From Escherichia coli (GTDB lineage: Bacteria; Pseudomonadota; Gammaproteobacteria; Enterobacterales; Enterobacteriaceae): a stretch of DNA of 64,000 nucleotides. This document shows, piece by piece, positions 7,133 to 21,105 of this stretch. Positions within the stretch are counted from its first letter, which is position 1, and each line of letters begins with the position of its first letter. The stretch is taken from NCBI RefSeq assembly GCF_965641715.1, contig NZ_OZ282453.1; one strand, 5' to 3'. The notes below the pieces were generated by a model that was not told the origin of the DNA, made no database searches, and saw only the letters and a list, made by a program, of their open reading frames with translations. The translations under genes were made by a program, and so were the position numbers.

Positions 7133-8532
7133 ACACTCGCCAGCTACTGAGCGTCGGTATCGATATCGGCACCACCACCACCCAGGTGATTTTCTCCCAC
7201 CTGGAACTGGTTAACCGTGCGGCGGTGTCGCAGGTGCCGCGCTACGAATTCATCAAACGCGAAATTAGCTGGCAAAGCCCGGTGTTCTTTACCCCTGTCG
7301 ATAAACAGGGTGGTTTAAAAGAAGCGGAACTGAAATCGCTGATTTTAGAGCAATATCAGGCTGCGGGCATTGCGCCGGAAAGCGTTGATTCTGGTGCCAT
7401 CATCATCACCGGTGAAAGCGCGAAAACCCGCAATGCTCGCCCGGCGGTGATGGCGCTCTCTCAGTCGCTGGGCGATTTTGTCGTCGCCAGCGCCGGGCCG
7501 CACCTCGAATCCGTGATCGCCGGTCACGGTGCCGGGGCGCAAACCCTTTCTGAACAACGGCTGTGTCGGGTACTGAATATCGACATCGGCGGTGGCACCG
7601 CGAACTACGCCCTGTTCGATGCCGGAAAAATCAGCGGCACTGCCTGCCTCAACGTCGGTGGTCGCCTGCTGGAAACCGACAGCCAGGGGCGCGTGGTTTA
7701 CGCTCATAAACCGGGGCAGATGATTGTGGATGAGTGCTTCGGCGCAGGCACCGATGCCCGTTCGCTGACCGGCGCGCAGCTGGTGCAGGTTACCCGGCGG
7801 ATGGCAGAGCTGATTGTCGAAGTGATTGACGGAACGCTTTCGCCGCTCGCGCAGGCATTAATGCAAACCGGTTTGCTGCCCGCAGGTGTTACGCCCGAAA
7901 TCATTACGCTTTCTGGCGGCGTGGGCGAATGTTATCGCCACCAGCCCGCCGACCCGTTCTGTTTTGCCGATATTGGCCCGCTTCTGGCAACGGCGCTGCA
8001 TGACCATCCGCGCCTGCGTGAGATGAACGTGCAGTTTCCGGCGCAAACCGTGCGCGCCACGGTGATTGGTGCGGGTGCACATACCCTTTCGCTCTCTGGC
8101 AGCACAATCTGGCTGGAGGGCGTACAACTGCCGCTGCGCAATTTGCCGGTGGCGATCCCAATTGATGAAACGGATCTGGTGGGTGCCTGGCAACAGGCGC
8201 TGATTCAGCTGGATCTTGATCCCAAAACTGACGCGTACGTGCTGGCGCTTCCCGCCTCGCTGCCTGTGCGTTACGCCGCGGTACTGACGGTCATCAACGC
8301 GTTGGTCGATTTCGTCGCGCGTTTTCCGAATCCGAATCCCCTGCTGGTGGTGGCCGGGCAGGACTTTGGTAAAGCTCTGGGCATGTTGTTGCGCCCACAG
8401 CTACAACAACTCCCGTTGGCAGTCATTGACGAAGTGATTGTCCGCGCGGGGGACTATATCGACATTGGTACGCCTCTTTTTGGCGGATCGGTTGTGCCGG
8501 TGACGGTGAAATCACTCGCATTTCCTTCCTGA
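7129..8532 (+). CDS. eutA: Ethanolamine ammonia-lyase reactivating factor EutA (467 aa)
   Basis: Translation recognised as EutA; 4-nt overlap with eutH stop. Confidence 0.9.
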   Translation: MNTRQLLSVGIDIGTTTTQVIFSHLELVNRAAVSQVPRYEFIKREISWQSPVFFTPVDKQGGLKEAELKSLILEQYQAAGIAPESVDSGAIIITGESAKTRNARPAVMALSQSLGDFVVASAGPHLESVIAGHGAGAQTLSEQRLCRVLNIDIGGGTANYALFDAGKISGTACLNVGGRLLETDSQGRVVYAHKPGQMIVDECFGAGTDARSLTGAQLVQVTRRMAELIVEVIDGTLSPLAQALMQTGLLPAGVTPEIITLSGGVGECYRHQPADPFCFADIGPLLATALHDHPRLREMNVQFPAQTVRATVIGAGAHTLSLSGSTIWLEGVQLPLRNLPVAIPIDETDLVGAWQQALIQLDLDPKTDAYVLALPASLPVRYAAVLTVINALVDFVARFPNPNPLLVVAGQDFGKALGMLLRPQLQQLPLAVIDEVIVRAGDYIDIGTPLFGGSVVPVTVKSLAFPS

Positions 8533-8627
8533 ATACTGTAGTTATCAGGCGTGGCGCTGGGTGGCTGGGTGTTAGTGGGATTATATCCGGCTGTGTATCC
8601 GGTCGGGGTGATTGGTCTGTATAGCAG

Positions 8628-8648
8628 AAAACCCGGCGCGGGGCCGGG
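8628..8648 (-). terminator. Intrinsic terminator-like hairpin (minus strand) downstream of the 217-aa island ORF
   Basis: aaaacccggcgcggggccggg: GC stem with T-run on minus strand; identical 21-mer recurs at 10317-10337. Confidence 0.45.
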
Positions 8649-8655
8649 TGAACTA

Positions 8656-9309
8656 TCACTCAGGGAACAAGTTGATTTGAAGCAAACTGCCAATGTATTT
8701 ACCAGTGCTTTTAATTTTTCGCTTTGATGGCTTACACGAATTCAGGTTGACACCAGCCTGGCTAGATATTGGCTTGTATTGCCGCTCCGCCAGTACGATC
8801 AGGTCTGCCGCGTCTTTTAGCTTTCCATCGTTAGCCAGTTCCAATGCTCGATCCGCCATTTGCCCGCATTGTTGAATCAGCTTAAGTTGCGATACCTCCA
8901 GTCGCAATTGCTGGATTCGTTCTACCACTTTCGCCCTAATGCGCTTAGTTTCACGCATTCCCATTCTTAATGCCTGGTTGCCAGTAAGTGAGTAAACCTC
9001 TTTTTCTTTCCTGAAGTTTGCGGCTTTACCGTCAGCTTGGACGCGCATTTTATGCGCTTCCAAGAATTCGCCCTCCAATTCATCCCTGATCTTCGCGTTG
9101 AATCTGTCGTTCTTGAGTTCATTTAACCCTTCCGCCTTGCGGATCTGGTTGATTAACTCCAACAATTCATCACTGCGGATACGCCACTCGCTATCAACCT
9201 GTACCAAGTCAAACATGTTGTTGCTCCCGTTTTGCTGCCATAGGGCAACGGCTCGCCAGCCTTTATCACCTCCTTTAGTTGTTGCGATTCTTAACTGAAT
9301 GGTTATCAA
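8656..9309 (-). CDS. Hypothetical island protein, charged/coiled-coil-rich (217 aa as ORF; likely start at internal ATG 9216, 186 aa)
   Basis: ORF translation; GGGAG-type RBS upstream of internal ATG at 9216; no domain recognised. Confidence 0.45.
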   Translation of the reverse strand: MITIQLRIATTKGGDKGWRAVALWQQNGSNNMFDLVQVDSEWRIRSDELLELINQIRKAEGLNELKNDRFNAKIRDELEGEFLEAHKMRVQADGKAANFRKEKEVYSLTGNQALRMGMRETKRIRAKVVERIQQLRLEVSQLKLIQQCGQMADRALELANDGKLKDAADLIVLAERQYKPISSQAGVNLNSCKPSKRKIKSTGKYIGSLLQINLFPE

Positions 9310-9380
9310 AACGCTGCGTTAATATCATTGATATGTATCAAATTTGTTTTGTGACGCGACAATGCCTTGTGAATATCAAT

Positions 9381-9404
9381 AAAAAACCCAGCGCTATGGC
9401 TGGG
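9381..9404 (-). terminator. Intrinsic terminator-like hairpin downstream of HTH-protein gene
   Basis: aaaaaa-CCCAGC-gctatg-GCTGGG on plus strand, i.e. hairpin followed by T6 on minus strand. Confidence 0.45.
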
Positions 9405-9437
9405 CTTCGTTTAATGAGATGGGATTGAAAGCGGGTT

Positions 9438-10220
9438 TTATTTATCTCCCAGATTGTATTCCCAGTTGGGAAGTAAAGTTATCAGCTTGTCACCTTTCTT
9501 GCCTTTGCCGATCTGGTTGCCGTTCTCGTCTTTCTTGTGTGTGATTTCCTGGTCAACCTTAATCAATCCTCTCTCTTTGGCTTGCTCAATCAGTCGGTAG
9601 AATGCGCCGTTACTAATCGGCTTCCGGTTACCGTCGTTATCCATCGCAGTGATTTTCTGTTGCAGTCCGGCGTTATTGCCCAGGTATTCGCCACCTAACG
9701 CCGCCAGTACCTGACACAACATGCCGACACTGTATTTTTTCGGATTTGGGTTAATCCATTCTTTAGCTCCCATCTCTTTTTTGTCGTTGGGCGCTTGTTC
9801 TGCTGCTACTGCGTTCACCTTTTCATCTCCCATCTTGTTACCGCTTGCTGTGCGCTTAATTTCTTCCAGTTCTCTCTCAAGCTCACCTATACGTAATTCA
9901 CGCTCGATAATTACCCCGCGCAGCACATCATCATCACCGTGAGGGCTTGCCTGAATCCAGTTACCATTGGCGAGCGGTAGGAGGGCATAAATTCCGAACA
10001 GGTCACAAAGCGCGGCAAGTGTATTAAAATCAGGTTCCCGGCGTCCCTCCATCCAGTGGCTAACAGCGCCTTTTGTGACTGGTTCGCCTTTCTTGCTTTT
10101 AACACCCATGCGATCCAGTGCGGCGGCTATCTCTTCGCATTTAATGCCACGACCGCCAGCATAGCCCGCCGCTTTCGCGGCCCCTTTGAGGATGTCGTGA
10201 ATTTTCATTTCGTAACTCAT
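9438..10220 (-). CDS. Putative HTH (XRE-like) DNA-binding protein with uncharacterised C-terminal domain (260 aa from second ATG)
   Basis: Helix-turn-helix-like segment ...EEIAAALDRMGVKSKKGEPVTKGAVSHWMEG...; GGGAGA RBS 8 nt upstream of ATG at 10220. Confidence 0.55.
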   Translation of the reverse strand: MSYEMKIHDILKGAAKAAGYAGGRGIKCEEIAAALDRMGVKSKKGEPVTKGAVSHWMEGRREPDFNTLAALCDLFGIYALLPLANGNWIQASPHGDDDVLRGVIIERELRIGELERELEEIKRTASGNKMGDEKVNAVAAEQAPNDKKEMGAKEWINPNPKKYSVGMLCQVLAALGGEYLGNNAGLQQKITAMDNDGNRKPISNGAFYRLIEQAKERGLIKVDQEITHKKDENGNQIGKGKKGDKLITLLPNWEYNLGDK

Positions 10221-10226
10221 AATTTT

Positions 10227-10257
10227 ATCTCCCATCTCATGAACTATGGTGGGAGAT
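10227..10257. promoter_or_regulatory. Inverted repeat ATCTCCCA-N15-TGGGAGAT overlapping RBS/start of the HTH gene (candidate operator)
   Basis: Arms at 10227-10234 and 10250-10257 seen directly in sequence; the left arm coincides with the RBS/first-codon sequence, so arm identity may be partly coding-driven; function inferred. Confidence 0.3.
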
Positions 10258-10316
10258 TAACACGGCGGGCCTGTGGCGGGTAAGTGTAACGGGAGAGAAT
10301 GTTGATTCAGGTCACA

Positions 10317-10337
10317 AAAACCCGGCGCGGGGCCGGG
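10317..10337 (-). terminator. Intrinsic terminator-like hairpin downstream of the 158-aa island ORF (copy 2 of 21-mer)
   Basis: Identical to 8628-8648. Confidence 0.45.
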
Positions 10338-10359
10338 CTGTGTTAGTACGTCGTTGCTC

Positions 10360-10836
10360 TTAGTTCATGAGGAGATCTTTAAATTCGACGCCGTATTCAT
10401 GGGCAATGTCGCCTCTATAGTAGATGTTATCTTTCAGGATATATCCGACGTTTCTCAGGACGTGAGAACACTCTCTTACTGCTGCCTCTTTACCCCTTAA
10501 AACATCCTCCCCGCTAACTTCTTCGCCGCTGTACTTCACTGCGATGTTGTCTGCTGCACGCTCTGCTGCTTCCAGGCAATTAATCTTCACTTTTCCCCGA
10601 TTCTCCCAGGCAAAATCGCGGCCATAAATCCCCATTGCATCAACCATCTTTTGCGCAGTAGTGCGCTCATCCACCCATTCAGTGCGTTCGAACTTCTCGC
10701 CAGCAGCTACCCTTGCCGCCAGTTGTTCGTGTTGAGTCTGTACGGCCGCAGCCTCTTCTTCCCATTTGCCTTGCTCGTTGTATACGATGAAGCCAGTGAT
10801 GACTGCAGCGATTAGTAACTTGTCCAGAAAATTCAT
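10360..10836 (-). CDS. Hypothetical membrane-anchored protein (158 aa, N-terminal hydrophobic helix)
   Basis: ORF translation MNFLDKLLIAAVITGFIVY...; strong AGGAGGA RBS upstream of ATG. Confidence 0.5.
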   Translation of the reverse strand: MNFLDKLLIAAVITGFIVYNEQGKWEEEAAAVQTQHEQLAARVAAGEKFERTEWVDERTTAQKMVDAMGIYGRDFAWENRGKVKINCLEAAERAADNIAVKYSGEEVSGEDVLRGKEAAVRECSHVLRNVGYILKDNIYYRGDIAHEYGVEFKDLLMN

Positions 10837-11089
10837 AGCTTCCTCCTATCTGTTCAATTACCCGGCATCTCTTGCCGTTGAACGTATTAAACAAAATGCC
10901 AGTCAGGGATAAAGCGATCTGCGTCATAAAGTCCATCCCCCATCTCATTGATATTGATGGGAGATTGTTTAATTGGTCAGAAATTAAGCGTTTATGTGCG
11001 CTGCCGGGTATCCACCTCCTATCTGAAGATGGAAAGATGGGTGATATAATGTGATGGCAATTGGTGGATTGCGTGGTTTTTACAATGAT

Positions 11090-11120
11090 AAGGGGCTGGC
11101 GTAATGCTGGCCCCTTTGTT
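11090..11120 (+). terminator. Plus-strand-specific hairpin plus T-run (candidate terminator of a short plus-strand transcript)
   Basis: aggggctggc-gtaat-gctggcccc-tttgttt; stem needs G-U wobble pairs so folds only as plus-strand RNA. Confidence 0.3.
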
Positions 11121-11356
11121 TATCCGGTATCCGGTATCCGGTATAAGCGGGCGTGTATCCGGTAGCGGGGATATGGGCGCGTGTACGTGAAATCTGGCAA
11201 ATTAGCAGGGTAATTGTGAGGGAATTTTTGCGTAGGAGCGTTTGTGGCTGGTAGCTCAAAATTGAGCTTTGCTTTTCATTCAATGACTTAGGTTAATTCT
11301 AGCAAAACGCTAGGATTGAATGTCCGCCAGTCTGCTTCCCCTAGCGTGGGATTTGG

Positions 11357-13723
11357 TCAACGTCTGCGCGGCTGCAAAATTCCTCCGGGTCGTTGTGATT
11401 CACGCTGCATCAGTCGCATCGCTGTGTTTTCTATGGTCTGCTGCAGCGCTTTTGAGTCTTCCTCTGTCCAGCCGTTGTTAGCCTGGATGTTGAACGTATT
11501 GTTCATCGTGATTCCGCCACCGCCTACCAGATCGCGGCCCGGTGTAACTCGTCCACCTTCACCCGGGATCATGTACTGTTTCCCGCCAGTGGATGTAAAT
11601 AGCTCCGGTACTCCGTGCTCCCCGACCCTATAAAGATTGCCACCGTTAACAGCCCCGCCGTTGTAACGAGCGCCAGCCAGTCCAAGCGTTTTGGCGGCAG
11701 CTACGCCAGTAGTAAGCCCGGTAAGTCCAGTGGCCCCAGCGCCGCCCATCGTGGCTACGTTAGCCAGGTATGCAGGAGTGGCCCACGCCGATCCTAATGC
11801 TGTAGCCTCTGCTAGTGCTTTAGCTGTTGCGGCTGCGTTTGCGGCTTCACCAATTAGCTGCTGTTTAACCCACTCAGCACCCATCTGGACAATGCCACCG
11901 ACCACAGAAGACAGGATCGTACTGCCAACGTTGGCAAGTGACTCTTGCAGCGATTGAGTACCGTTTATCAGTCCGGTAAATGCGCTGCCAGCGCCAGACG
12001 ATAACCCATCGACCATATTCCCGATGAGGCCATTTATATCGCTTTGTTTCTTCCACTGCTGCCACTGGAGATCCAGAACCCTTTGTTCATGTGCGATCTC
12101 TTCCTGGCGCAACTGCTCTTCGGTAGCCCCAAGATCTAGAAGCATTTGCTTGCGAACAGCCCATTCATTTTGGATCTTCTGTATTGGGTCAATCTGAGCT
12201 TTCTGCTTATCCTGCTCACTGACAAGACTGTCCCATTTCGCTTTCTGCTTGCGGATGGCTTCAGCTTCATCAATTGCTGCGAGTGTACTTGCTCGCTGTT
12301 TCGCGCTGATCAACCGTTTCTGCTCAGCCGCTTCCAGGTCTTCTACTGCTTTTTTCCGTTTATTGAGCGCCGCTAGTTCGGGATCGTATTTTTCCACCAA
12401 TGAAAGGCCGCTTGCTTCCTTACGTTCGCGTTCTCTTTGTGCCTGTTTGGCTGCCTGCTTAGCGGCGTTTTCTGCTTGTTTGGCTGCTCTTTCTTTCGCC
12501 CTGGTGTTCTCTTCTTCCTTGCGCTTATTCTCTTCTAACTCCTTGTTTTGTTCGCGTAATTTAACGATTTCCTCATGATGCGCCTTTGTCAGCTGGCCTT
12601 CTTTCAGTGCCCGATCTATATCAGCGTTTGCGTTGCCTTTTAGCTGTTCCTGTTTAACTTGCAGATGTTTAATCATCATTTCGCCAGTGGCAATCGCTGC
12701 CGCAGACGCTCCAGCATTCAGAGCTTCATTTAACGCTCTCTGACGTTCTTCTGCTGTTAATGCCTCGTTGCTGTATCGAAGTAGCGCATCAACGTATTTC
12801 TCCAGTTCTGCGCGGCCTGCCGCAGTTGCTGGTTCCATTGCTTTTAGGATGCTCAGAAGGCTTTGCGCTTCATAGGAAGACGGGTTTTTGCGGAACTGCG
12901 CCATAGCGTTATAAAGCGCCATAGCTTCACCCTCTGTGATTCTGTACTTAGCTCCCAGCCCTTCAATGACCGCTGATAACTGTTTGCCAAGCGCTGCACC
13001 GAATGCGCCTTCCTTGCTTAATTTGTTGAGCACTTCACTCAGTGAATTTCCTGACACGCCCAGCGCGTCGAGTTCTCTTGCTACCGTTCCCAGGTCGCCG
13101 CCTTTCATCCATCCTGCATTAGAAAATTCAGTGATAGCCCGGCCCGCTTCCCGCGTTTCTTCCTGGAGTGTTTTTAGCGCCCGCACGGCCTGCTCTTTCA
13201 TTACGGCGGCGGCAATGGCGTTGTTCTGTGTGGCTTCGTAATATGAATCACTGAAAGCGTTAACGCCCTGGGTGGATTTGCCGATCACGGCGTCGATTGA
13301 TGCTAATGCCTCCTTCATCCTTTCAGCGCTATCCGTTGCGTCGTCCATGCTGTCCGTTAGGCTGTTGGCAATCGCCCCGCCAATAGCCATCACCGCCCCC
13401 ATGACCGCACCGCCAGTACCGAAGGCAGCGGCAAGTTGTGCACCCTGCACAGCGAACGCCTGGAGCGCATTACCGCCCATCTGCAATTGAGTGGCAAGGT
13501 CTGCGATCTGGTATGATGCGTTACGGATTGCCGGGGAAAGGTTGGTTTTGACTGCGGCAGACGTTTTGGTCATCTGCGTGTTCAGTTTTTTGACGCCACT
13601 GTCAGCGCGTTTTGCGCCGCGTTCTATACTGTCAAAAGCCTGGTCCGCTTCTTGTTGTGCTGCCAGGAGTTTACCAGTACGGGCGTCGACCTCATAGTAT
13701 ATGGTCCCAAGATTCCCACTCAT
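11357..13723 (-). CDS. Phage tail tape-measure-like protein (788 aa)
   Basis: Long Ala/Gly/Gln-rich coiled-coil protein; C-terminal motif ...GGNLYRVGEHGVPELFTSTGGKQYMIPG... resembles the conserved C-terminal block of siphovirus tape-measure proteins. Confidence 0.6.
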   Translation of the reverse strand: MSGNLGTIYYEVDARTGKLLAAQQEADQAFDSIERGAKRADSGVKKLNTQMTKTSAAVKTNLSPAIRNASYQIADLATQLQMGGNALQAFAVQGAQLAAAFGTGGAVMGAVMAIGGAIANSLTDSMDDATDSAERMKEALASIDAVIGKSTQGVNAFSDSYYEATQNNAIAAAVMKEQAVRALKTLQEETREAGRAITEFSNAGWMKGGDLGTVARELDALGVSGNSLSEVLNKLSKEGAFGAALGKQLSAVIEGLGAKYRITEGEAMALYNAMAQFRKNPSSYEAQSLLSILKAMEPATAAGRAELEKYVDALLRYSNEALTAEERQRALNEALNAGASAAAIATGEMMIKHLQVKQEQLKGNANADIDRALKEGQLTKAHHEEIVKLREQNKELEENKRKEEENTRAKERAAKQAENAAKQAAKQAQRERERKEASGLSLVEKYDPELAALNKRKKAVEDLEAAEQKRLISAKQRASTLAAIDEAEAIRKQKAKWDSLVSEQDKQKAQIDPIQKIQNEWAVRKQMLLDLGATEEQLRQEEIAHEQRVLDLQWQQWKKQSDINGLIGNMVDGLSSGAGSAFTGLINGTQSLQESLANVGSTILSSVVGGIVQMGAEWVKQQLIGEAANAAATAKALAEATALGSAWATPAYLANVATMGGAGATGLTGLTTGVAAAKTLGLAGARYNGGAVNGGNLYRVGEHGVPELFTSTGGKQYMIPGEGGRVTPGRDLVGGGGITMNNTFNIQANNGWTEEDSKALQQTIENTAMRLMQRESQRPGGILQPRRR

Positions 13724-14012
13724 AATATCTTTATCCGCGTTGTGCGGACACCTCCGATTATTCTTTACTCTAATAATTTCACAATGAAACAGTTTATTGC
13801 CGCTTCAGTGGCTTCGTGTTCCGGTTTGCTTCGATCAATCACAAAAAATACAGCTTAATAGAATCAATGGCTTATAAAGTTGTATTAGCTATGTTTCTTC
13901 GTCCGTGCCACTGAAAACCCAGTTTTTCCAATGGAATCAATACTGATATGTATCCATACTGTTTTTCACATAATGTACGTTATGCGCACTACGGGAAACG
14001 TACTGAATTTAT

Positions 14013-14243
14013 TTACTGGTCGCCGTTCAGTTCATGCAGAGTCTGTTCTGGCAATGAATCCAGCCAGTTTTCTGCATCCTCCCTGTAACACTCCAGGATG
14101 CAACGGTTTGTGAAGTTGATGAAAGCGGTCAGTGATTCTGCTTCGTCGTTCCTGTGCGTTCTCCTGGCGTGCTTGCGTAGTCGTTTCGCGTCTGCCAGTT
14201 GGTCATTGAGTATCTTCAGTCTGTCGGCAATATCATCGTTCAT
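14013..14243 (-). CDS. Hypothetical small island protein (76 aa)
   Basis: ORF with GAGGGAGAG RBS upstream of ATG. Confidence 0.4.
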   Translation of the reverse strand: MNDDIADRLKILNDQLADAKRLRKHARRTHRNDEAESLTAFINFTNRCILECYREDAENWLDSLPEQTLHELNGDQ

Positions 14244-14378
14244 GTCGTCTCTCCCTCGCGCGCGCGTCGTACTTGTCCGAAAATTACCCCCATAAAAGCG
14301 CCCCTCATATAGTGCAAAATCCCGGCTGACGCGGATCTCAGTGGGTTTTAGCAGTGAAAACTGACATCAAAAACGGCT

Positions 14379-14426
14379 CGCTAAGGTCCGCTAAGTATCC
14401 GCTATCGTTCGCTAACCCCCCGCTAA
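14379..14426. repeat. Five direct CGCTAA/CGCTAT hexamers phased at 10-11 bp (candidate protein-binding array)
   Basis: Copies at 14379, 14389, 14400, 14410, 14421; one helical turn apart; intergenic. Confidence 0.5.
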
Positions 14427-14430
14427 CCTA

Positions 14431-14796
14431 TTAGATATCGCATCCAACGCTATTGAGCTGGCTATGTATATCGGCGCGAATTAACTTCAGGCGTTTACAA
14501 AATTCGCGTTCTTCCGAATTAAGCTCGCGGCCACCTTGTTTCGAGGCAATGAGCTTGTTGATGGTGGAAAGCGAATATTCACTCCATATACGAAGCATTT
14601 GTCGCTTCATTGGTTGCTCGCTCAATGGTGAGTTTTTCAGGTCTGACACGCGCTCTGCGACGGTTCTTGCGATGCCTTGTACCACTCGTAGTGCCAACAT
14701 GATGATTTTCTCCGGACTTGTGCTAATATAGTTCCCGAACATTGTTTCGAGACTGCTTATCCTGTTTGTCTTGTCCGATTTGTTCATTGGTCGCAT
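14431..14796 (-). CDS. Hypothetical island protein (121 aa)
   Basis: ORF only; weak RBS, so lower confidence. Confidence 0.35.
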   Translation of the reverse strand: MRPMNKSDKTNRISSLETMFGNYISTSPEKIIMLALRVVQGIARTVAERVSDLKNSPLSEQPMKRQMLRIWSEYSLSTINKLIASKQGGRELNSEEREFCKRLKLIRADIHSQLNSVGCDI

Positions 14797-14838
14797 TGTT
14801 AAGTCAGCCGGGGTAATTCCCGGCTTTCTTTTATCCGA

Positions 14839-15381
14839 TCAGTACCGAATCCCTATCGCATTGAATACGCGTTTCCGTTGCTCAGCTTCAGGATCGGCGG
14901 CCATTTCTGGTTCTGGCTCCGGCATAGACGGGGCGGCATCAAAATGCTCAATTTCACGACCGAAATACGAGTTCAGGTCAATACCTGCCGAACTATCCAC
15001 TCCATCAAAATAGCGACGCTGTTCCTCGGTGAGACAGCTACCCAGACGTTCCTCAACCTGCGCCATAAACTCAGCATCCGGTGAGAAGTACTCATCCGGA
15101 GTCGGAGCACCGCTCTGTTTGTGCATCTCCATTTTCTCTGCGTTCGTTTTCAGCCCGGCAATGCGTTTCTCCAGTCCGGCGGCTTTAATAGCGTCAGCAA
15201 CGATTTGTGGGATCTGCGGTTTAATTATTTCGATAACTTCATTGCTGATTAATTTAAACTGGGCCATACGGATCGCTTTAATCTGCTTATTTAACAGTGC
15301 GCGTTCCCCTTCGTTGGCGGTTTTATCACGCTGTGCTACCAGTTCATCGCCTTTGTTTGTCAGTACATCAAATGCGTCCAT
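14839..15381 (-). CDS. Hypothetical island protein (180 aa, acidic C-terminus)
   Basis: ORF with strong GGAGGAGG RBS. Confidence 0.5.
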   Translation of the reverse strand: MDAFDVLTNKGDELVAQRDKTANEGERALLNKQIKAIRMAQFKLISNEVIEIIKPQIPQIVADAIKAAGLEKRIAGLKTNAEKMEMHKQSGAPTPDEYFSPDAEFMAQVEERLGSCLTEEQRRYFDGVDSSAGIDLNSYFGREIEHFDAAPSMPEPEPEMAADPEAEQRKRVFNAIGIRY

Positions 15382-15398
15382 TGTCTTTCCTCCTCCGA

Positions 15399-15725
15399 TT
15401 ATTTAAAAGTGCTTATTGACACGCCGAAACGACGACTTAATTCAAAAAGGAGTCGCGCCTTTGCAGTGCCTTCCATGTCTTCCGGCATTTCAGACTGAAG
15501 TTTATCAGCTACTTCATCAACAAGTGGCCGAACCGTTTCCACGAACTTGTCCGCAATATAATCAGCAGAACGCATCACTTTTTCCTGGAATTCCTCACGG
15601 CGTACCTGGGCGGCTGATTTAGGGGCTGTCGTGCGCTGAAAATAACTGTCTAATGAATGCATGGCATCTGCTCCTTTTACTTTGATTGCTGTTATTTCTT
15701 TAATTGTGTTTGCTTTGATTTTCAT
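15399..15725 (-). CDS. Hypothetical island protein (108 aa)
   Basis: ORF with AAGGA RBS; tightly packed after upstream gene. Confidence 0.5.
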   Translation of the reverse strand: MKIKANTIKEITAIKVKGADAMHSLDSYFQRTTAPKSAAQVRREEFQEKVMRSADYIADKFVETVRPLVDEVADKLQSEMPEDMEGTAKARLLFELSRRFGVSISTFK

Positions 15726-15801
15726 GCTGCCTATTCCTTCAGAAATTGCGGTAGTTTGCTTTTTAAATCAATAAGTTATTTGATAATCTCAGTAGCTGTT
15801 T

Positions 15802-15993
15802 TCATTGGTGGCGAGCGCCTTTGTTTTTATAGAATTCCAAAATCTCAGATCGGATAAACTTAATTCTTGAGCCAATCGGACTGACCGGGACGGGCCAGCC
15901 TTTAATCTTGTTCATCCACCGGAATATTGTCCGACGGGTAACGCCGAATAAAGCTGCTACCTCGTTAACCGTCATTAATTCGCTATCATTCAT
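15802..15993 (-). CDS. AlpA/excisionase-family small HTH regulator (63 aa)
   Basis: Translation ...MTVNEVAALFGVTRRTIFRWMNK... matches AlpA-type prophage regulators; typical partner of P4-type integrases. Confidence 0.6.
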   Translation of the reverse strand: MNDSELMTVNEVAALFGVTRRTIFRWMNKIKGWPVPVSPIGSRIKFIRSEILEFYKNKGARHQ

Positions 15994-16280
15994 GTTCTCA
16001 CCTCAAAAAGTAGCGGTGAGGAAAATATGGAGAAAACCCTCACCGCGCCCTGAATGAAATTAAAGACCAACATTACTGTTGATACTTATTATTATATTCC
16101 TCCTGTCCCTGTTTCACATCTTTTACCATATAGTGAAAGGGGATATTCTGTAATGTTTACAAAACTTTTAATTAGCAAAAAATAATTGCGCATCTCACGT
16201 AATGCAGGGATAATATTACTCAAGGGCTGGTTGCCCTTACTCAAAATGTGATCTATAACTACAACGATCTATTTCACTTC

Positions 16281-16307
16281 CCCGCTTTCTCCGGCGGGAT
16301 TTTTTTG
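16281..16307 (+). terminator. Plus-strand intrinsic terminator-like hairpin within 600-bp noncoding stretch
   Basis: cccgc-tttctccg-gcggg followed by a ttttttt. Confidence 0.4.
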
Positions 16308-17122
16308 CCTGCAATCTGGCACCATTGCGCACATTAAAATTAGATGCCATTTAAAAGCGATATAACGCGTTCTGCCGGGCTTAATTTTGGCTATCCACTT
16401 GGAAGGGTAAGCCTGTTTTGATTCGTCTGGCGTGGAATGGTGCGGCGGTAATATCAGATCTCAGCGTTCTGCGTGGTGGGATGAAATAGCCTGGCAGGAT
16501 TTGCGTGTGGTTTGCTCTCCCAAAAAATGGGGTAATGGCGCTGGCTGGATGGCAGGACTCCGCGCTGATTACTGGATGGCTGAAAATTTAATGAAATCGC
16601 ATCAATTTTAATGCGTCTAAATCGCTCTGTGGCGACGTGAAGTTTTCAGGTAAGCAAGTGTAGCTGTGTGGTGTGTTCATCGCGTTACTGGCACCATTCC
16701 GTTCGAATTTGGCGCTATCAGGATGGTTTGCGGTGGTCGGCGGCGGGGATAAACTTGCTTGAGTGGTCACCTCAGCCTGCTGTGCGTCGTGTGATGGTAC
16801 TGTCTGCACCTGGCTATACGCTGCTTTGCTGCTGTTTCCTGTCTGGTCTGTATACGCGATAAAACCCATCGGCTTTACAGTGAGTGAGTTTTTTGCGCTT
16901 TGCTTTCCATTCGGTTTGCTTACTGCTGCTGTGTGTCTGTGCGGTAGCTCAGAAAGCTGTCGATGATAACCATCACTGCCAGACCGTCTTTTGAGCTGGC
17001 GATTGCTCGAAGTCTTCCGAAGGTCCGCTGGGCTTGTTGCTTGTTTGTGTTCTTTTAAAATGCGCGCCTCTTACTTTCTCTTAAAAAGAAAAAAGGAATA
17101 TACAGATCTCATACTATGTGTG

Positions 17123-17273
17123 TCCCAAATGTCACACGTCATGGCCTGACCTGTATCCCAAATGTCACACGTCACCCTCTGACCTGTATCCCAAATGTCA
17201 CACGTACCTGTGTCCCAAATGTCACACGTCTATTGTTAATTAATTGTTGACCTGTGTCTCAAATGTCACACGT
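17123..17273. repeat. Iteron array: five direct copies of TCCCAAATGTCACACGT (fifth TCTCAAATGTCACACGT)
   Basis: Copies start 17123, 17156, 17189, 17213, 17257; AT-rich block tattgttaattaattgttga between copies 4 and 5. Confidence 0.65.
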
Positions 17274-17338
17274 CTGTTGATGGTTTAAGTAATAAAAAGG
17301 GCCACCATTTTAGGTGACCCATTGATGCGTTTTAGTCG

Positions 17339-18103
17339 TTATCTTGCGTTCTCGACCTGAAAAAGCATTCTGTATTTTCTTGCGTGCTGACCAATAACAT
17401 ATTCCCCGTATGGCTCAATGAGTCCTAACTCAACCAGGATTTTCATCTGGCGAATTACGGTGCGGCGATTCATGCCCCATTCATCAGCTATTTTTGCCTG
17501 GCAAACTTCAGATACATAAGATCCATCATTCTGCTTTCTTGCTGCTGATGCAATGCTGGATAATACGCTCCAGGCTGTAGCTTTAGCTTTATTCTCGCAA
17601 CCACTTCTGACAAATGCCTTACGTGCCGCACCCAAACAGACATAACTGCAATAAATTCCTTTTTCTTCCGTTTGGTATTGTGTCTCTTTATCCTGCATGG
17701 CTTCCGGTTCTTCCGGCGCTTCCTGCTGTGGTGCTGTCTGCGAAGTTTTAGCGGCCATACTGCGTAGCTCGTTCACGATATCAGTAGCTGATTTCTTCTC
17801 GCTTTTAGTTTCCTGCGTGACTGATAAATACTCACCTTGTAACGCCAGGAAGTCAGCGCGGGCGTTTGCCTGGCTTTGTTCTGGTGATTCAGGTTCTGCA
17901 TCGGCAGGTGATGAAATCGGTGATACACGCGCCCAGCCTGTTTTGGCGTTGCATTCCCAGCGATAACCATTAAAGCGGATATCATTCAGGCCATCATCAA
18001 TGGCGCTCCGTACTTCTTCCGGGATCGCGTCGATTTTCTGAAGGCTGTGTTTACCGAGTGATTCGCCTTGCCGTGGGGCGTAGGCGGTTGGTAAAATATT
18101 CAT
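17339..18103 (-). CDS. Putative winged-HTH DNA-binding protein, candidate replication initiator or regulator (254 aa)
   Basis: C-terminal HTH-like segment ...GMNRRTVIRQMKILVELGLIE...; perfect AAGGAGA RBS; iterons immediately 3' of gene. Confidence 0.5.
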   Translation of the reverse strand: MNILPTAYAPRQGESLGKHSLQKIDAIPEEVRSAIDDGLNDIRFNGYRWECNAKTGWARVSPISSPADAEPESPEQSQANARADFLALQGEYLSVTQETKSEKKSATDIVNELRSMAAKTSQTAPQQEAPEEPEAMQDKETQYQTEEKGIYCSYVCLGAARKAFVRSGCENKAKATAWSVLSSIASAARKQNDGSYVSEVCQAKIADEWGMNRRTVIRQMKILVELGLIEPYGEYVIGQHARKYRMLFQVENAR

Positions 18104-18349
18104 GTGGGATTTCTCCTTTTTACTTGTTTCCCATATCGCCCGGATTGGTTAGCGGCCTTCCGGGCTTTTTGTTGCGTTGATCCTATTTTCGATCCCCGGA
18201 TTTTTTATTACAAACTTGGCTTAATCATTGATTTTATTGGTATAGCTGTATAAAAGGATAACAGGATAAAAGGGTGATAGATTGTGTAACCTGTTAACCT
18301 TTTATACCAGTAAGGCGAAAGAAAAGCCGGACGAATCCGGCCTTATAGT

Positions 18350-19555
18350 TCACGGCTCCAGCGGATTACCGCCACCAGCCAATATCTGGTCGATGGCGTC
18401 GCTGTAGTCCTGCATCATGGCCCGCCGTTGCTTCAGATAGGCCGCCTGGTTATAAACGCCGCGCACACCTTTCGGAACGTGGGCCAGTTGGATTTCGATC
18501 CAGTCTGGTGAGTATCTGCCGTACTCGTTAAGTGCGGTTGAAAAGGTGGTTCGCCAGCCGTGACCAGTGGCTATCGACTTGTATCCGATACGCTCCAGGG
18601 CTTTAAGGATGGCACTGGCTGAAAGTGGCTTATCCATGAATCGACCAGGGAACACAAAAGCACTGTATCCGCTGCGGGTAAACTGGTCCTGTAATAGCTC
18701 GACCGCCTGCCGGGATAGCGGGACCACATGCGGGCGGCGGGCCTTCATGACTTCAGCGGGTAGGGTGATGGTTGCCGATTCCAGATCTACCCACTCCCAG
18801 CGCATTAAACGCAGTTCTGCGGTCCTTAGGGCGCTTAATATAAGCAAACGTATTGCCGTCTGAATCTGAACGCTCCCGGCTCTCTCAAGGGCTTTGTAGA
18901 AGGCCGGGATTTCGTTAATTTGTATCCATGCGTTATGGCCTGGGCGTCGGGCTTTCAATGCCGTGTCCAGATCTGCAACCGGATTTCGGTTAACCAGTTC
19001 AGTGATAACGGCAAATTTGAAGATTTCCCCTATACGCTGCCGTAATTTTCGGGCCTGTTCCGGCGCGGTGCGCTCTTTCTTCTGAAGCAATGCCAGCACG
19101 TCACGGGCCGTTATATCGACAATCGACCGCTTGCCAAGTACCGGATAAACATCTTTCTCCAGTGCCGATCTAACTTGTTTCGTGTAAGACTCAGACCAAC
19201 CGCTCACTCTGGTAGCAAACCAGTCTTCCGCTACCGTCTTAAAACTTGCCGCCATGTTGAGCGCATCAATGGCTTTCTCCTTGCGCGCTTCTTCCATTGG
19301 GTCAATTCCCTGGGCGATGAGTAAACGGCTCTCTGTGGCGCGTTTACGTGCTTCCTTCAAGGTAATCAGCGGATATACCCCAATAGCCTGTAACCGCTCT
19401 TTCTTGTCTATCCAGTACCGGAATCGCCAGTATTTGCTGCCATTGGGATGTACCAGCAAGAACAGGCCAGGTGTCTGTGAATCGGTGAGTTTGTAGGGCT
19501 TGTCCTTCGGCTGGGCGGCCTCTATGCCCTTTGCTGTCAGTGGTGTCTTGCTCAA
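18350..19555 (-). CDS. Tyrosine-type site-specific integrase, P4-like family (401 aa, TTG start)
   Basis: Translation ...GLFLLVHPNGSKYWRFRYWIDKKERLQAIGVYP... typical N-terminal arm-binding region of P4-type integrases; located at island edge. Confidence 0.85.
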   Translation of the reverse strand: MSKTPLTAKGIEAAQPKDKPYKLTDSQTPGLFLLVHPNGSKYWRFRYWIDKKERLQAIGVYPLITLKEARKRATESRLLIAQGIDPMEEARKEKAIDALNMAASFKTVAEDWFATRVSGWSESYTKQVRSALEKDVYPVLGKRSIVDITARDVLALLQKKERTAPEQARKLRQRIGEIFKFAVITELVNRNPVADLDTALKARRPGHNAWIQINEIPAFYKALERAGSVQIQTAIRLLILSALRTAELRLMRWEWVDLESATITLPAEVMKARRPHVVPLSRQAVELLQDQFTRSGYSAFVFPGRFMDKPLSASAILKALERIGYKSIATGHGWRTTFSTALNEYGRYSPDWIEIQLAHVPKGVRGVYNQAAYLKQRRAMMQDYSDAIDQILAGGGNPLEP

Positions 19556-19743
19556 AACCGGATACCTCGATCTAACGACTCGATAACCCCGCTCATGTAT
19601 CCGTCGCGTTCGGTTGCGTTCGGCAGGATAAGTAACGGGCGTATTAAGTGGAACACCTTACAGGACAAGGGATAACGATGAAATAGAATTGTTCGAATGC
19701 TGTGAAAAATGTTACTCATCACTTCTTCCTGAGGGAACGACTT

Positions 19744-21105
19744 ATGAAACTAAAGACCACATTGTTCGGCAATGTATATCAGTTTAAGGATGTAAAAGAG
19801 GTGCTGGCTAAAGCCAACGAACTGCGTTCGGGGGATGTGCTGGCGGGCGTCGCAGCGGCAAGCTCACAGGAGCGCGTGGCGGCAAAGCAGGTGTTGTCGG
19901 AAATGACCGTAGCGGACATCCGCAATAATCCGGTGATTGCCTATGAAGATGACTGCGTGACGCGGCTGATTCAGGACGATGTTAACGAAACGGCCTACAA
20001 CCAGATTAAAAACTGGAGCATCAGCGAACTGCGTGAGTATGTGCTGAGCGATGAAACCAGCGTGGACGACATTGCCTTTACCCGCAAAGGGCTGACCTCG
20101 GAAGTGGTCGCGGCGGTAGCGAAGATTTGCTCCAACGCGGACCTGATCTACGGCGCGAAGAAAATGCCGGTAATCAAAAAGGCCAATACCACCATCGGTA
20201 TTCCGGGCACCTTTAGCGCCCGTTTGCAGCCAAATGACACCCGTGACGACGTGCAAAGTATCGCCGCGCAAATCTACGAAGGGCTTTCCTTCGGGGTGGG
20301 CGATGCGGTGATCGGCGTCAACCCGGTAACTGACGATGTGGAAAACTTAAGCCGCGTGCTGGATACCATTTATGGCGTGATCGACAAATTCAACATCCCA
20401 ACTCAGGGCTGCGTACTGGCGCACGTCACCACCCAGATCGAAGCGATTCGTCGCGGCGCGCCTGGCGGACTGATTTTCCAGAGTATCTGTGGCAGCGAAA
20501 AAGGGCTGAAAGAGTTTGGCGTGGAACTGGCGATGCTCGACGAAGCGCGCGCAGTGGGCGCAGAGTTCAACCGTATCGCCGGGGAAAACTGCCTCTACTT
20601 CGAAACCGGACAAGGCTCTGCGCTATCCGCTGGCGCTAACTTCGGCGCTGACCAGGTGACGATGGAAGCACGTAACTATGGGCTGGCGCGTCATTACGAT
20701 CCGTTTATCGTCAACACCGTGGTCGGTTTTATTGGGCCGGAGTATCTCTACAACGACCGCCAGATTATCCGTGCTGGCTTAGAAGATCACTTTATGGGCA
20801 AGCTGAGCGGCATCTCTATGGGCTGTGACTGCTGTTACACCAACCACGCTGACGCTGACCAGAACCTCAACGAAAACCTGATGATCCTGCTCGCCACCGC
20901 AGGCTGCAACTACATCATGGGGATGCCGTTGGGCGATGACATCATGCTCAACTACCAGACCACCGCCTTCCACGACACTGCCACTGTGCGTCAGTTACTC
21001 AACCTGCGCCCGTCACCGGAGTTTGAACGCTGGCTGGAAAGCATGGGCATTATGGCAAACGGTCGCCTGACCAAACGGGCGGGCGATCCGTCACTGTTCT
21101 TCTGA
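19744..21105 (+). CDS. eutB: Ethanolamine ammonia-lyase large subunit EutB (453 aa)
   Basis: Translation recognised; start at ATG 19744 (MKLKTTLFG...). Confidence 0.9.
   Translation: MKLKTTLFGNVYQFKDVKEVLAKANELRSGDVLAGVAAASSQERVAAKQVLSEMTVADIRNNPVIAYEDDCVTRLIQDDVNETAYNQIKNWSISELREYVLSDETSVDDIAFTRKGLTSEVVAAVAKICSNADLIYGAKKMPVIKKANTTIGIPGTFSARLQPNDTRDDVQSIAAQIYEGLSFGVGDAVIGVNPVTDDVENLSRVLDTIYGVIDKFNIPTQGCVLAHVTTQIEAIRRGAPGGLIFQSICGSEKGLKEFGVELAMLDEARAVGAEFNRIAGENCLYFETGQGSALSAGANFGADQVTMEARNYGLARHYDPFIVNTVVGFIGPEYLYNDRQIIRAGLEDHFMGKLSGISMGCDCCYTNHADADQNLNENLMILLATAGCNYIMGMPLGDDIMLNYQTTAFHDTATVRQLLNLRPSPEFERWLESMGIMANGRLTKRAGDPSLFF

Follow-up and report, generated by a model that had tools for sequence, protein, structure and literature searches.

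What do two identical 21-nt repeats at one end of an integrative element mark, and is the DNA between them a module that moves as a whole? In the 64,000-nt stretch of Escherichia coli DNA analysed here (the window), the sequence AAAACCCGGCGCGGGGCCGGG was found exactly at 8628–8648 and at 10317–10337, as direct repeats of which 0 are expected in shuffled sequence, and no further match was present in the window at up to three mismatches. A preliminary description of the locus read the two copies as minus-strand terminator hairpins that bracket a block of three cargo genes. The repeats and their hairpins are as described; the block is not. In the arrangement favoured here, to which we assign a probability of roughly 0.6, the eutA-proximal end of the element would consist of single-gene units jointed by terminators, with palindromes that would serve as operators for a YffS-like repressor.

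An integrative element between eutA and eutB

The repeats lie at one end of an 11.2-kb CPZ-55-family integrative element (8533–19724) between eutA and eutB. The flanks consist of eutH and eutA upstream, and of an IntZ-like integrase and eutB downstream. The insertion point is directly after the eutA stop codon, and reading of the sequence identified an 8-bp target duplication, CTTCCTGA, with one copy at the eutA-side end (8525–8532, including the eutA stop codon) and a second at 19725–19732, in agreement with the duplication published for CPZ-55, TCAGGAAG (PMC6379469). The integrase (401 aa, 18350–19555) adjoins eutB and is of phage type (phrog_1), and RefSeq variants inserted at the same site carry the annotation intZ. 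Together with a YffS orthologue at the eutA-proximal end, the site after the eutA stop codon, the 8-bp duplication and the IntZ-type integrase make up the full set of features by which the family was recognised.

The closest characterized counterpart is the CPZ-55 cryptic prophage of K-12, which comprises intZ and yffL to yffS between eutB and eutA. It shares with the window element the integration site, the 8-bp duplication and the IntZ-like integrase, has orthologous YffS (70% identity) and a YffR to which one window protein is 34% identical, and carries terminators after yffR and yffS, palindromes and a promoter block, all as in the window. The window element is larger, however (11.2 kb versus 6.8 kb in K-12), with a tape-measure-like gene, an iteron array and an additional last gene, and it has one gene in the position filled by yffQ and yffR in K-12.

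Comparison of variants showed the window to be a mosaic, its left part resembling H9Ecoli and F2_407 (8401–9835, approximately 98.7% H9Ecoli-like) and its right part resembling strain T2 and ATCC 8739 (9264–11500, 99.6%). Its combination of cassettes occurred in 0 of 5,426 complete E. coli genomes. When the whole island was compared with GenBank phages, the sole match was 363 nt long and lay inside the tape-measure-like gene, the protein product of which gave 0 matches to NCBIfam and PADLOC. An Rfam scan of 8000–20000, at E-values up to 1, also returned 0 matches.

Genes, terminators and homology breakpoints

The interval between the 21-mers contains two genes, the last gene of the island and a helix-turn-helix (HTH) gene, and not the three first assigned to it. 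The third, a 158-aa gene, lies outside, and the copy at 10317 is its own terminator. The HTH gene (9438–10220, minus strand, 260 aa) had been regarded as cargo of no recognised family, but is the orthologue of yffS, 70% identical to K-12 YffS over the full length (E 7e-133), and is part of the conserved core of the island end. Its product aligns with K-12 YffS from residue 1, consistent with the start previously placed at ATG 10220. The YffS family is tiny: it comprises 28 clusters, of which the named ones all come from E. coli, and of 1.84 billion representatives 11 reached E<1e-10.

The last island gene, which occupies a position referred to here as slot Z (8656–9216, minus strand), most likely encodes 186 aa from ATG 9216, where a GGGAG Shine–Dalgarno sequence is present 7 nt upstream and where a near-identical RefSeq homologue is annotated at 561 nt; the length of 217 aa given earlier would apply if TTG 9309 were used. 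The protein matched four anti-repressor families in PHROG (E 8e-6 to 3e-4), and its AF2 model (pLDDT 81.7) matched KilA (E 2e-6, TMq 0.58) and Ant C-terminal/KilAC (E 5e-5 and 1e-3) in BFVD, suggesting a phage regulatory protein that is remotely Ant/KilA-like. Pfam gave no ANT/KilA and no significant match (best DUF6549, E 0.005), a PDB sequence search produced chance-level matches only, Foldseek of the 186-aa model against the PDB recovered generic helical bundles only, and NCBIfam and PADLOC had no match. The gene is absent in K-12 and 2-1, and strain T2 carries a different gene in its place. Slot Z was also considered as a conserved partner of YffS, and this was rejected since profile comparison showed the genes that distant relatives have in this slot to be unrelated, and since the slot is missing from K-12.

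The 158-aa protein (10360–10836, minus strand), at what is termed slot X, has a hydrophobic N-terminal segment and is a YffR-like orphan, with distant homology to K-12 YffR (34% identity, E 6e-18). Its sole source-named cluster is from E. coli, PHROG, NCBIfam and PADLOC gave 0 matches, Pfam gave nothing significant, and matches in a PDB sequence search were at chance level only. The slot is variable: other variants encode different small proteins there, also with N-terminal hydrophobic segments and mostly unrelated to each other. A defence function had been suggested for this cargo, and 0 matches to PADLOC models were obtained for the three proteins at E-values up to 0.01.

All three genes are followed by predicted intrinsic terminators on the minus strand, identified from a GC hairpin and U-run 3’ of the stop codon and from compensated changes in the stems. 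The two 21-mer copies, with GC stems of 6–7 bp, form T1 (8628–8648; −16.2 kcal/mol, 4 U), located 8 nt from the stop codon of the slot Z gene, and T3 (10317–10337; −16.9 kcal/mol, 5 U), located 23 nt from that of the slot X gene. A third, related hairpin, T2 (9383–9408; −17.2 kcal/mol, z −5.05, 6 U), is found 30 nt behind the yffS-like gene and is paralogous to the 21-mer but diverged, its stem being CCCAGC/GCTGGG; there is therefore one terminator per gene. A terminator scan listed T1 and T2, and missed T3, which has the same hairpin as T1, only because an extension of the stem consumes part of the T-run.

The three terminator slots are filled in nine variants, in which the hairpins differ by single-nucleotide loop changes and compensatory stem changes; the stems seen at equivalent slots are CCCGGC/GCCGGG, CCCAGC/GCTGGG, CCCGTC/GACGGG and CCCCGG/CCGGGG. 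The T1 slot is occupied in all variants, with the compensatory stem CCCGTC/GACGGG in NCTC9967, the T2 slot of OW1E2 retains CCCGGC/GCCGGG, and at the conserved T3 slot the loop reads GCAGG, GCTGG or GAGGG in variants other than the window. In L123, which is more distantly related, different hairpins and further stem variants occupy the same positions, with the T1 outer flank conserved. Outside the family, the exact 21-mer was found in 111 IMG/VR viral contigs with 83 distinct flank contexts and a GC content of 42–68%, and it is therefore a generic, widespread terminator. Because the loop GCGGG is the commonest state in both the T1 and T3 slots, and because the two copies lie on segments with different nearest relatives, their identity is no mark of recent duplication. 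It represents ancestral similarity retained under structural constraint and does not mark a mobile unit.

Homology breakpoints were located by aligning the window with eight island variants, only nine variants being compared in all. Homology ends at the edge of T1 (8648–8652) in strain T2, NCTC9967, K-12 and 2-1, at the edge of T2 (9416) in F2_407, and at T3 in five variants, either at its edge (10337–10341; H9Ecoli, K-12 and NCTC9967) or inside it (10323–10326; ES5 and 2-1). K-12 and 2-1 lack exactly 8649–9381 and have in its place one fused hairpin, alignable to both T1 and T2, which combines the T1 outer flank with the T2 inner flank. OW1E2, ES5 and 2-1 have a fourth copy of the hairpin, with the T1 outer flank, at the end of a different cassette. 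The positions of the breakpoints at hairpin edges and the exact loss of 8649–9381 in K-12 indicate that exchange is by single genes and that the block is not a unit. The preliminary description had set module boundaries against a widespread terminator with no association to them; the 21-mer is such a widespread terminator, yet the breakpoints do fall at the hairpins.

It is highly improbable that the identical 21-mers delimit a single mobile cargo module that is gained, duplicated or excised whole by recombination between them and that serves exclusion or defence. The exact, direct repeats, the coincidence of the hairpins with module boundaries and the variable flanking slots with their orphan proteins would all suit such a module. 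However, one of the two genes in the interval is the conserved core regulator yffS, the X, middle and Z slots vary independently of one another, and no T1/T3 fusion junction was found in 5,426 complete E. coli genomes; the different closest relatives of the segments carrying the two copies, the generic nature of the 21-mer in its 83 unrelated contexts and the lack of a PADLOC match also argue against it. Of the earlier proposal of a modular unit formed through terminator repeats, the hairpins as module boundaries survive, while the expectation that the block would be swapped as a whole among island variants does not, the slots varying singly about a conserved HTH gene.

We propose instead that the eutA-proximal end is an array of three leftward-transcribed single-gene units, each separately terminated, with a variable slot X (the YffR-like protein), a conserved middle (the yffS orthologue) and a slot Z that is variable or absent (the Ant/KilA-like protein). 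Each unit would be closed by one of three paralogues (T3, T2 and T1, respectively) of a single generic terminator made up of a GC hairpin and a U-run. These hairpins, of approximately 20 nt, may act as joints because they are the sole sequence common to otherwise unrelated neighbours; cassettes would be gained, lost and replaced at them through short-homology recombination, the T1/T2 fusion of K-12 being one product.

Hairpin breakpoints could also reflect conservation of terminators amid illegitimate gene replacement, and need not be crossover sites. The terminators would then be passive landmarks, kept by selection while their neighbours differ, and the cassettes would be swapped by illegitimate or longer-homology events elsewhere. 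Breakpoints on the 5’ side do lie away from hairpins (9226, 9264 and 9835), the hairpins of a given slot may be wholly different in distant relatives, and a repeat of 17–21 nt is short for RecA-dependent exchange. This explanation is nevertheless considered rather unlikely, as the single hairpin of K-12 and 2-1, with nothing between its T1-derived outer and T2-derived inner flank, is the exact product of a crossover within the hairpin, and the fourth hairpin with the T1 outer flank in OW1E2, ES5 and 2-1 likewise speaks against passive terminators.

The YffS-like protein and the palindromes

The YffS-like protein is predicted to consist of an N-terminal Xre-type HTH domain, a long helix, a disordered linker with a 20-aa repeat, and a C-terminal winged-helix-like domain. 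Sequence matches to the HTH are marginal (Pfam HTH_31, E 1e-3, and HTH_3, E 5e-3; PHROG transcriptional regulator, E 7e-4), a PDB sequence search with the protein returned nothing, and NCBIfam and PADLOC had no match. The N-terminal domain was modelled by AF2 with a pLDDT of about 90 and aligned by Foldseek with the DNA-binding domain of ImmR (TMt 0.81, rmsd 1.2), with PDB E-values all above 0.01. The AF2 model of the C-terminal domain gave weak Foldseek matches to MarR, PadR and F93 winged helices. There is thus modest support for the YffS-like protein being a DNA binder of the HTH type. In transposon sequencing (TraDIS), K-12 yffS was apparently essential and was listed alongside the Rac regulator ydaS (PMC5821084), which fits YffS as a repressor of something harmful, although only as a lead.

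The inverted repeat noted earlier at the start of the HTH gene is present (ATCTCCCA at 10227–10234 and TGGGAGAT at 10250–10257), and in its full extent has arms of 10 nt separated by 11 nt. It is one of three palindromes of 31–32 bp found in two putative promoter regions, with the consensus ATCTCCCAYC-N11/12-GRTGGGAGAT. Palindrome A (ATCTCCCATC-N11-GGTGGGAGAT, 10227–10257) lies over the yffS Shine–Dalgarno sequence, abuts a putative extended −10 element, TGTTAATCT, on the minus strand (10254–10262), and is in the same place in all yffS-bearing variants; it is proposed as an autoregulatory operator. Palindrome B (ATCCCCCATC-N11-GATGGGAGAT, 10935–10965), also a proposed operator, is 78% identical to palindrome A, lies approximately 100 nt upstream of the 158-aa gene, and is at the equivalent position in OW1E2, ES5, 2-1, NCTC9967 and K-12. 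Palindrome D (ACCTCCTATC-N12-GATGGGTGAT, 11014–11050) overlaps a conserved extended −10 element on the plus strand (TG at 11042–11043, TATAAT at 11045–11050), within a block, TCTCCCACCTGAAA.CGGAAAGATGGGTGATATAATG, that is conserved in K-12, OW1E2, ES5 and 2-1.

The architecture of 10-nt arms around an N11 or N12 spacer is constant, with the sequence of the spacer varying. All 5 occurrences of TGGGAGAT and all 4 of CTCCCATC in the 64-kb window fall within 9444–10965, the clustering of the latter having a binomial P of about 5e-7 on a region picked after the motif was seen. Where the N-terminal domain of a relative has diverged or been swapped, the palindrome has another sequence but keeps its start right after a putative TGnTAA −10 element. 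The promoter positions, and with them the overlap of palindromes and promoters, are putative, being weak consensus matches in spacers in which a generic promoter scan gave none; RpoD holoenzyme binds both of the homologous K-12 spacers in vitro (PMC3946193).

A repeat described as a 12-mer at both the start and the stop of the HTH gene is an exact 11-mer, TGGGAGATAAA, on the minus strand at 10224–10234 and 9441–9451. The next two bases are AT at one copy and TA at the other, so the 12-mer pattern as written fails at the stop copy. That copy encodes the terminal residues LGDK and the stop codon, whereas other variants end in LGDE and retain no more of the repeat than TGGGAGA. The repeat is proposed to represent an operator arm doubling as the Shine–Dalgarno sequence, together with a coincidental match to the LGDK-stop codons.

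With two palindromes in the slot X/divergent promoter region and one over the yffS promoter and ribosome-binding site, the palindromes may be operators for a dimeric YffS-like repressor that would silence its own gene along with the adjacent promoters. Because the palindromes would also fold as RNA, and because the downstream arm of A and B is the Shine–Dalgarno sequence of the next start codon, a role at the level of RNA was weighed. The palindromes would then form 5’-leader hairpins in which an anti-Shine–Dalgarno arm masks the ribosome-binding sites of yffS and of a short ORF upstream of slot X, thereby controlling translation or stabilising the mRNA, instead of serving as operators. In all aligned A and B sites the downstream arm is GAUGGGAGAU with a start codon 8–9 nt later, the predicted hairpins (−13.4 and −14.8 kcal/mol) have z-scores of about −2.7 to −2.9, pairing is seen in 86.7% of cells across 12 sites versus 41–51% in slid controls, and the arms of distant relatives differ yet stay complementary. 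Covariation was, however, no better than in shuffles, 317 of 500 of which reached the observed score, and single-sided changes are left uncompensated, such as C-A at pair 12–40 in 4 of the 12 sites. A loop fixed at 11–12 nt but variable in sequence is what a protein site typically shows, palindrome D is situated upstream of a conserved, putative plus-strand promoter, the downstream arm in one relative (L120) has no Shine–Dalgarno sequence, and if TGnTAAyCT is the −10 element, the transcript would begin within or beyond the upstream arm. The RNA-level explanation is consequently judged unlikely, and binding of YffS to the palindromes as DNA, suggested by the clustering and conservation of the motif, is preferred. 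Separately, the idea that a candidate small RNA at 11050–11122 pairs with island transcripts in the manner of a type I toxin–antitoxin system was dropped, as only chance matches of 9–10 nt were found.

Relation to known systems and wider meaning

The proposed repressor most resembles those of the Xre/CI type, such as ImmR of ICEBs1 and lambdoid CI. The N-terminal HTH of the window protein has its closest structural match in the DNA-binding domain of ImmR, and the palindromes are repeated and placed over the gene's own putative promoter and a putative divergent promoter region. Unlike these repressors, YffS is tied to the class in sequence by a marginal Pfam HTH match, has a second, winged-helix-like C-terminal domain and a repeat-containing linker, and has no peptidase or cleavage domain; the candidate half-sites are also spaced 21 bp centre to centre.

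Slots X and Z resemble phage morons, a concept of Juhala and Hendrix for prophage accessory genes that have their own promoter and terminator and are inserted between conserved genes. Both are single genes with their own intrinsic terminator, are present, absent or replaced among related elements, and lie next to the attachment site. They differ from morons in that the window terminators are paralogous to each other and repeated at every joint, and in that their own promoters are putative, being predicted from sequence. An array of single-gene cassettes parted by short imperfect inverted repeats also recalls integron attC cassettes. An integron cassette array was ruled out, as the repeats are terminator hairpins of 17 nt with U-runs, in terminator orientation and without attC core sites, and the only integrase is not IntI but a tyrosine recombinase of phage type, encoded 8 kb away at the opposite end of the element. 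The cassette promoter arrangement is likewise absent, and the exchange proposed here is of the short-homology and not the site-specific kind.

On a wider reading, which is speculative and considered doubtful, CPZ-55-type elements would constitute a family of phage satellites in E. coli that has so far gone unrecognised. Members of the YffS family would be their master repressors, acting through the 31-bp palindromes, which would double as ribosome-binding-site arms; loss of YffS would be deleterious to the host, in line with the TraDIS hint from K-12, and the terminator-jointed slots adjacent to the attachment site would form a hot-swappable accessory or exclusion array. The elements encode an integrase and an AlpA-like excisionase, as well as a Rep-like protein accompanied by iterons, and relatives also carry small-terminase-like and HNH genes. 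A literature search for a link between intZ or the eut site and phage satellites found nothing.

The analysis removes a tempting but wrong reading, in which identical repeats bound a mobile defence module, and in other respects the biology is of a well-known type. The eutA-proximal end offers a clean, small example of paralogous terminators that may serve as joints for the shuffling of single genes in prophage-like elements. For yffS, an uncharacterised gene of K-12, it provides a cheaply testable model, in which the protein is proposed to act as the repressor of the CPZ-55 family by binding operators at defined sites of 31 bp.

The eutA-proximal end of a CPZ-55-family island

In the window, eutH and eutA are followed by an 11.2-kb insert (8533-19724), closed by a 401-aa phage-type integrase, and then by eutB. 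The 8-bp duplication CTTCCTGA is present on both flanks (8525-8532 and 19725-19732), the same as described for CPZ-55, a cryptic prophage of K-12 (PMC6379469), and intZ and yffS are annotated in RefSeq genomes with inserts at the eutA/eutB site. The 260-aa HTH protein (9438-10220, minus strand) is 70% identical to K-12 YffS over its full length, and K-12 YffR shares 34% identity with the 158-aa protein. Judged by site, duplication, annotation and these identities, the three-gene region is the end of a CPZ-55-family element that adjoins eutA. Among 5,426 complete E. coli genomes, none has the exact cassette combination of 8533-11360, and at best a single match reaches 84% coverage at 88% identity.

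For the last gene, previously given as 217 aa, ATG 9216 is the most likely start, which gives a product of 186 aa (8656-9216), as in the RefSeq annotation of its homologue. The 186-aa product gave weak PHROG anti-repressor matches, and in BFVD its model (pLDDT 81.7) matched phage KilA and Ant/KilAC proteins (E 2e-6 to 1e-3); Pfam gave nothing significant (DUF6549 was best, at E 0.005) and the PDB nothing informative. The 158-aa protein has a hydrophobic N-terminal segment, named relatives in E. coli only, no match in PHROG, NCBIfam or PADLOC and no significant match in Pfam. A proposed defence function gained no support, since none of the three proteins matched a defence model in PADLOC.

Elsewhere in the island, a 788-aa tail tape-measure-like protein is encoded at 11357-13723 (minus strand; phrog_1538, E 8e-112), other recognisable tail or head genes being absent from the 11-kb element; its homologue in strain T2 is a pseudogene. 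A 254-aa ORF (17339-18103, minus strand) with a weak PHROG replication-initiator match is closely followed, on its downstream side, by five iteron-like repeats of TGTGTCCCAAATGTCACACGT (17119-17285; spacing 33, 33, 24 and 44 nt); ORF and repeats probably represent the initiator and origin of the island itself. All five GTATCCGG sites in the 64-kb window (1.25 expected) fall at the two island ends (8595-8602 and 19558-19565) or in an internal cluster (11127-11162), within which F2_407 homology restarts at 11135. These may be integrase arm-type sites, and an earlier end of the island could survive as a relic in the internal cluster at 11.13 kb, which would suggest accretion of the three-gene end by tandem integration. 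More distant YffS-family loci (L120-L126) carry a gene like that of the Sf6-type small terminase, as well as HNH, a serine resolvase/invertase and a prolyl isomerase. Taken with the window's own integrase, AlpA-like excisionase (15802-15993), Rep-like protein and iterons, this content gives the family the look of a possible phage satellite; no literature linking intZ or the eut site to such satellites was found.

Terminator hairpins as cassette joints

The 21-mer AAAACCCGGCGCGGGGCCGGG occurs as exact copies at 8628-8648 and 10317-10337, with no further match in the window at up to three mismatches; by chance, none would be expected. On the minus strand, the orientation of all three genes, both copies form a GC stem of 6-7 bp with a 5-nt loop and a U-run (predicted folding of -16.2 kcal/mol at 8628 and -16.9 kcal/mol at 10317), confirming the hairpins of the preliminary description. 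They do not, however, bracket three genes. The 10317 copy follows the 158-aa gene (10360-10836) at a distance of 23 nt and is that gene's own terminator, and the gene therefore lies outside the bracketed interval. The HTH gene is closed by a third, diverged terminator at 9383-9408 (minus strand; -17.2 kcal/mol; stem CCCAGC/GCTGGG), and the last gene by the 8628 copy; by order of transcription the three were named T3 (10317), T2 (9383) and T1 (8628). Widespread occurrence of the 21-mer had been named as counting against a modular unit, as had matches of the proteins to structural or housekeeping families. The former was found, with 111 IMG/VR contigs carrying the exact 21-mer in 83 different flank contexts of 42 to 68% GC, but none of the three proteins matched such a family. 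The 21-mer is a generic terminator sequence, not an island-specific site.

Eight island variants (strain T2, H9Ecoli, OW1E2, K-12, ES5, 2-1, NCTC9967 and F2_407) were compared with the window. In all eight, the same three slots are filled by related hairpins, with loops one nucleotide apart (GCGGG, GCGGT, GCAGG, GCTGG, GAGGG) and compensatory stem pairs (CCCAGC/GCTGGG, CCCGTC/GACGGG, CCCCGG/CCGGGG); a more distant relative has other hairpins at these positions and keeps T1's outer flank. On sequence comparison, the three terminators are a paralogous family marking cassette joints. Pairwise homology to the window stops at hairpin edges, namely at 8648-8652 for T1 (strain T2, NCTC9967, K-12, 2-1), 9416 for T2 (F2_407) and 10337-10341 (H9Ecoli, K-12, NCTC9967) or 10323-10326 (ES5, 2-1) for T3. 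K-12 and 2-1 lack exactly 8649-9381, and their junction is one hairpin, alignable to both T1 and T2, whose outer flank is that of T1 and whose inner flank is that of T2, as would be expected of a crossover within hairpins. A fourth hairpin with T1's outer flank ends another cassette in OW1E2, ES5 and 2-1. Breakpoints on the 5' side of cassettes (9226, 9264 and 9835) are not at hairpins, and 9835 falls within yffS, where it separates the N-terminal from the C-terminal half.

This breakpoint pattern indicates that the three slots vary independently and that yffS is the conserved element. The terminator repeats stand as module joints, but the stretch between the 21-mers is not a unit, and the HTH gene, formerly counted as cargo, belongs to the conserved core. 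Nor was the suggested acquisition or duplication by recombination between the 21-mers borne out. A synthetic T1/T3 fusion junction had zero counterparts in the 5,426 complete E. coli genomes, and the two identical hairpins are carried on segments with different closest relatives, the window being a mosaic of 8401-9835 (about 98.7% H9Ecoli-like) and 9264-11500 (99.6% T2/ATCC 8739-like). The commonest loop at both the T1 and T3 slots is GCGGG.

The YffS-like protein and its putative operators

Pfam matches of the YffS-like protein to HTH_31 and HTH_3 were marginal. In its AF2 model, the N-terminal domain (pLDDT about 90) is closest to the ImmR DNA-binding domain; after it come a long helix and a disordered linker, and the C-terminal domain is weakly like winged-helix regulators. 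The linker contains a 20-aa repeat, one copy of which is missing from some family members. The family is tiny, with 28 clusters at 90% identity, all source-named ones from E. coli, and 11 representatives at E<1e-10 among 1.84 billion proteins. By TraDIS, and by that method only, K-12 yffS was listed as apparently essential, beside the Rac regulator ydaS (PMC5821084); this is compatible with YffS repressing something harmful, and is only a lead.

The inverted repeat noted at the HTH start is real and extends to ATCTCCCATC-N11-GGTGGGAGAT (site A, 10227-10257). Its architecture is shared by site B (ATCCCCCATC-N11-GATGGGAGAT, 10935-10965), about 100 nt upstream of the 158-aa gene, and site D (11014-11045, N12 spacer), which overlaps a perfectly conserved plus-strand TGATATAAT element. 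In the 64-kb window, 5/5 TGGGAGAT and 4/4 CTCCCATC motifs lie within 9444-10965. Of the 12-mer described at both start and stop of the HTH gene, the 11-mer TGGGAGATAAA is exact at both, after which the copies diverge; the stop copy encodes LGDK-stop, and other variants end in LGDE and keep TGGGAGA alone.

Every yffS-bearing variant carries the palindromes at the same positions, with conserved arms and a spacer fixed in length and variable in sequence. The palindrome is altered in relatives with a more diverged regulator or a different N-terminal domain, reading ATCTCACATC-N12-GATGGGAGAT in L123, CCTTTCATC-N11-GATGGAGG in L126 and CCTTCAATCGA-N10-TCGTTGAAAGG in L120, where the downstream arm lacks a Shine-Dalgarno sequence. 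In all three it starts directly after a conserved TGnTAA, read as a putative extended -10. Genomic SELEX showed RpoD holoenzyme binding to both homologous K-12 spacers, yffP-yffQ and yffR-yffS (PMC3946193). Action of the palindromes in RNA, as an anti-Shine-Dalgarno/Shine-Dalgarno hairpin, is physically possible given predicted foldings of -13.4 and -14.8 kcal/mol and a downstream arm that doubles, at sites A and B, as the ribosome-binding site for the following start codon; however, covariation in the pair counts was no stronger than in shuffles, and compensation is missing for several single-sided changes. Putative operators for a YffS-like repressor are the favoured reading because of the conserved sites, the change of sequence with the regulator, the position of TGnTAA and the binding of RpoD holoenzyme.

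Further motifs were observed nearby. Inside the yffS-like gene (9765-9838), two CTCCCATC motifs 60 nt apart give rise to the (E/K)MG(A/D) motif that is repeated in the linker. One of them, at 9765-9795, is part of a weak palindrome, which in OW1E2 is almost perfect even though amino acids have changed, and it may be an intragenic operator. The plus-strand segment 11036-11122 has a perfect extended -10 (TGATATAAT), conserved in K-12, OW1E2, ES5 and 2-1, and a strong hairpin terminator (11090-11116) 40-70 nt after it, and is a candidate for a small RNA that would be transcribed away from the 158-aa gene. Its transcribed sequence varies with island type, an Rfam scan gave no match and a complementarity search no clear target; a published K-12 prediction places a promoter at the same spot on the opposite strand. 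A short reading frame (MTQIALSLTGILFN...; 10860-10930, minus strand) directly follows palindrome B and is conserved in K-12 as a 24-aa ORF, and a 20-aa hydrophobic ORF (MKRWEVALLVMVMLVCCIEL) lies behind a further palindrome arm upstream of K-12 yffQ (L004, about 8430-8520, plus strand); both may be leader peptides or small membrane proteins. Upstream of the 186-aa gene (9322-9350) are the AT-rich palindromes ATATCATTGATAT and TGATATGTATCA; with a related 22-mer (82% identity) upstream of the tape-measure-like gene (13944-13965), they may represent a second regulatory motif.

The best model from these comparisons has two parts, in which three separately terminated units would surround a conserved YffS-like repressor with its putative operators, and cassettes would be exchanged by short homology at the paralogous terminators. 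Such an arrangement would be a further instance of familiar prophage biology, in which moron-like cassettes adjoin a repressor and its operators, and it is of value chiefly for giving yffS a function that can be tested.
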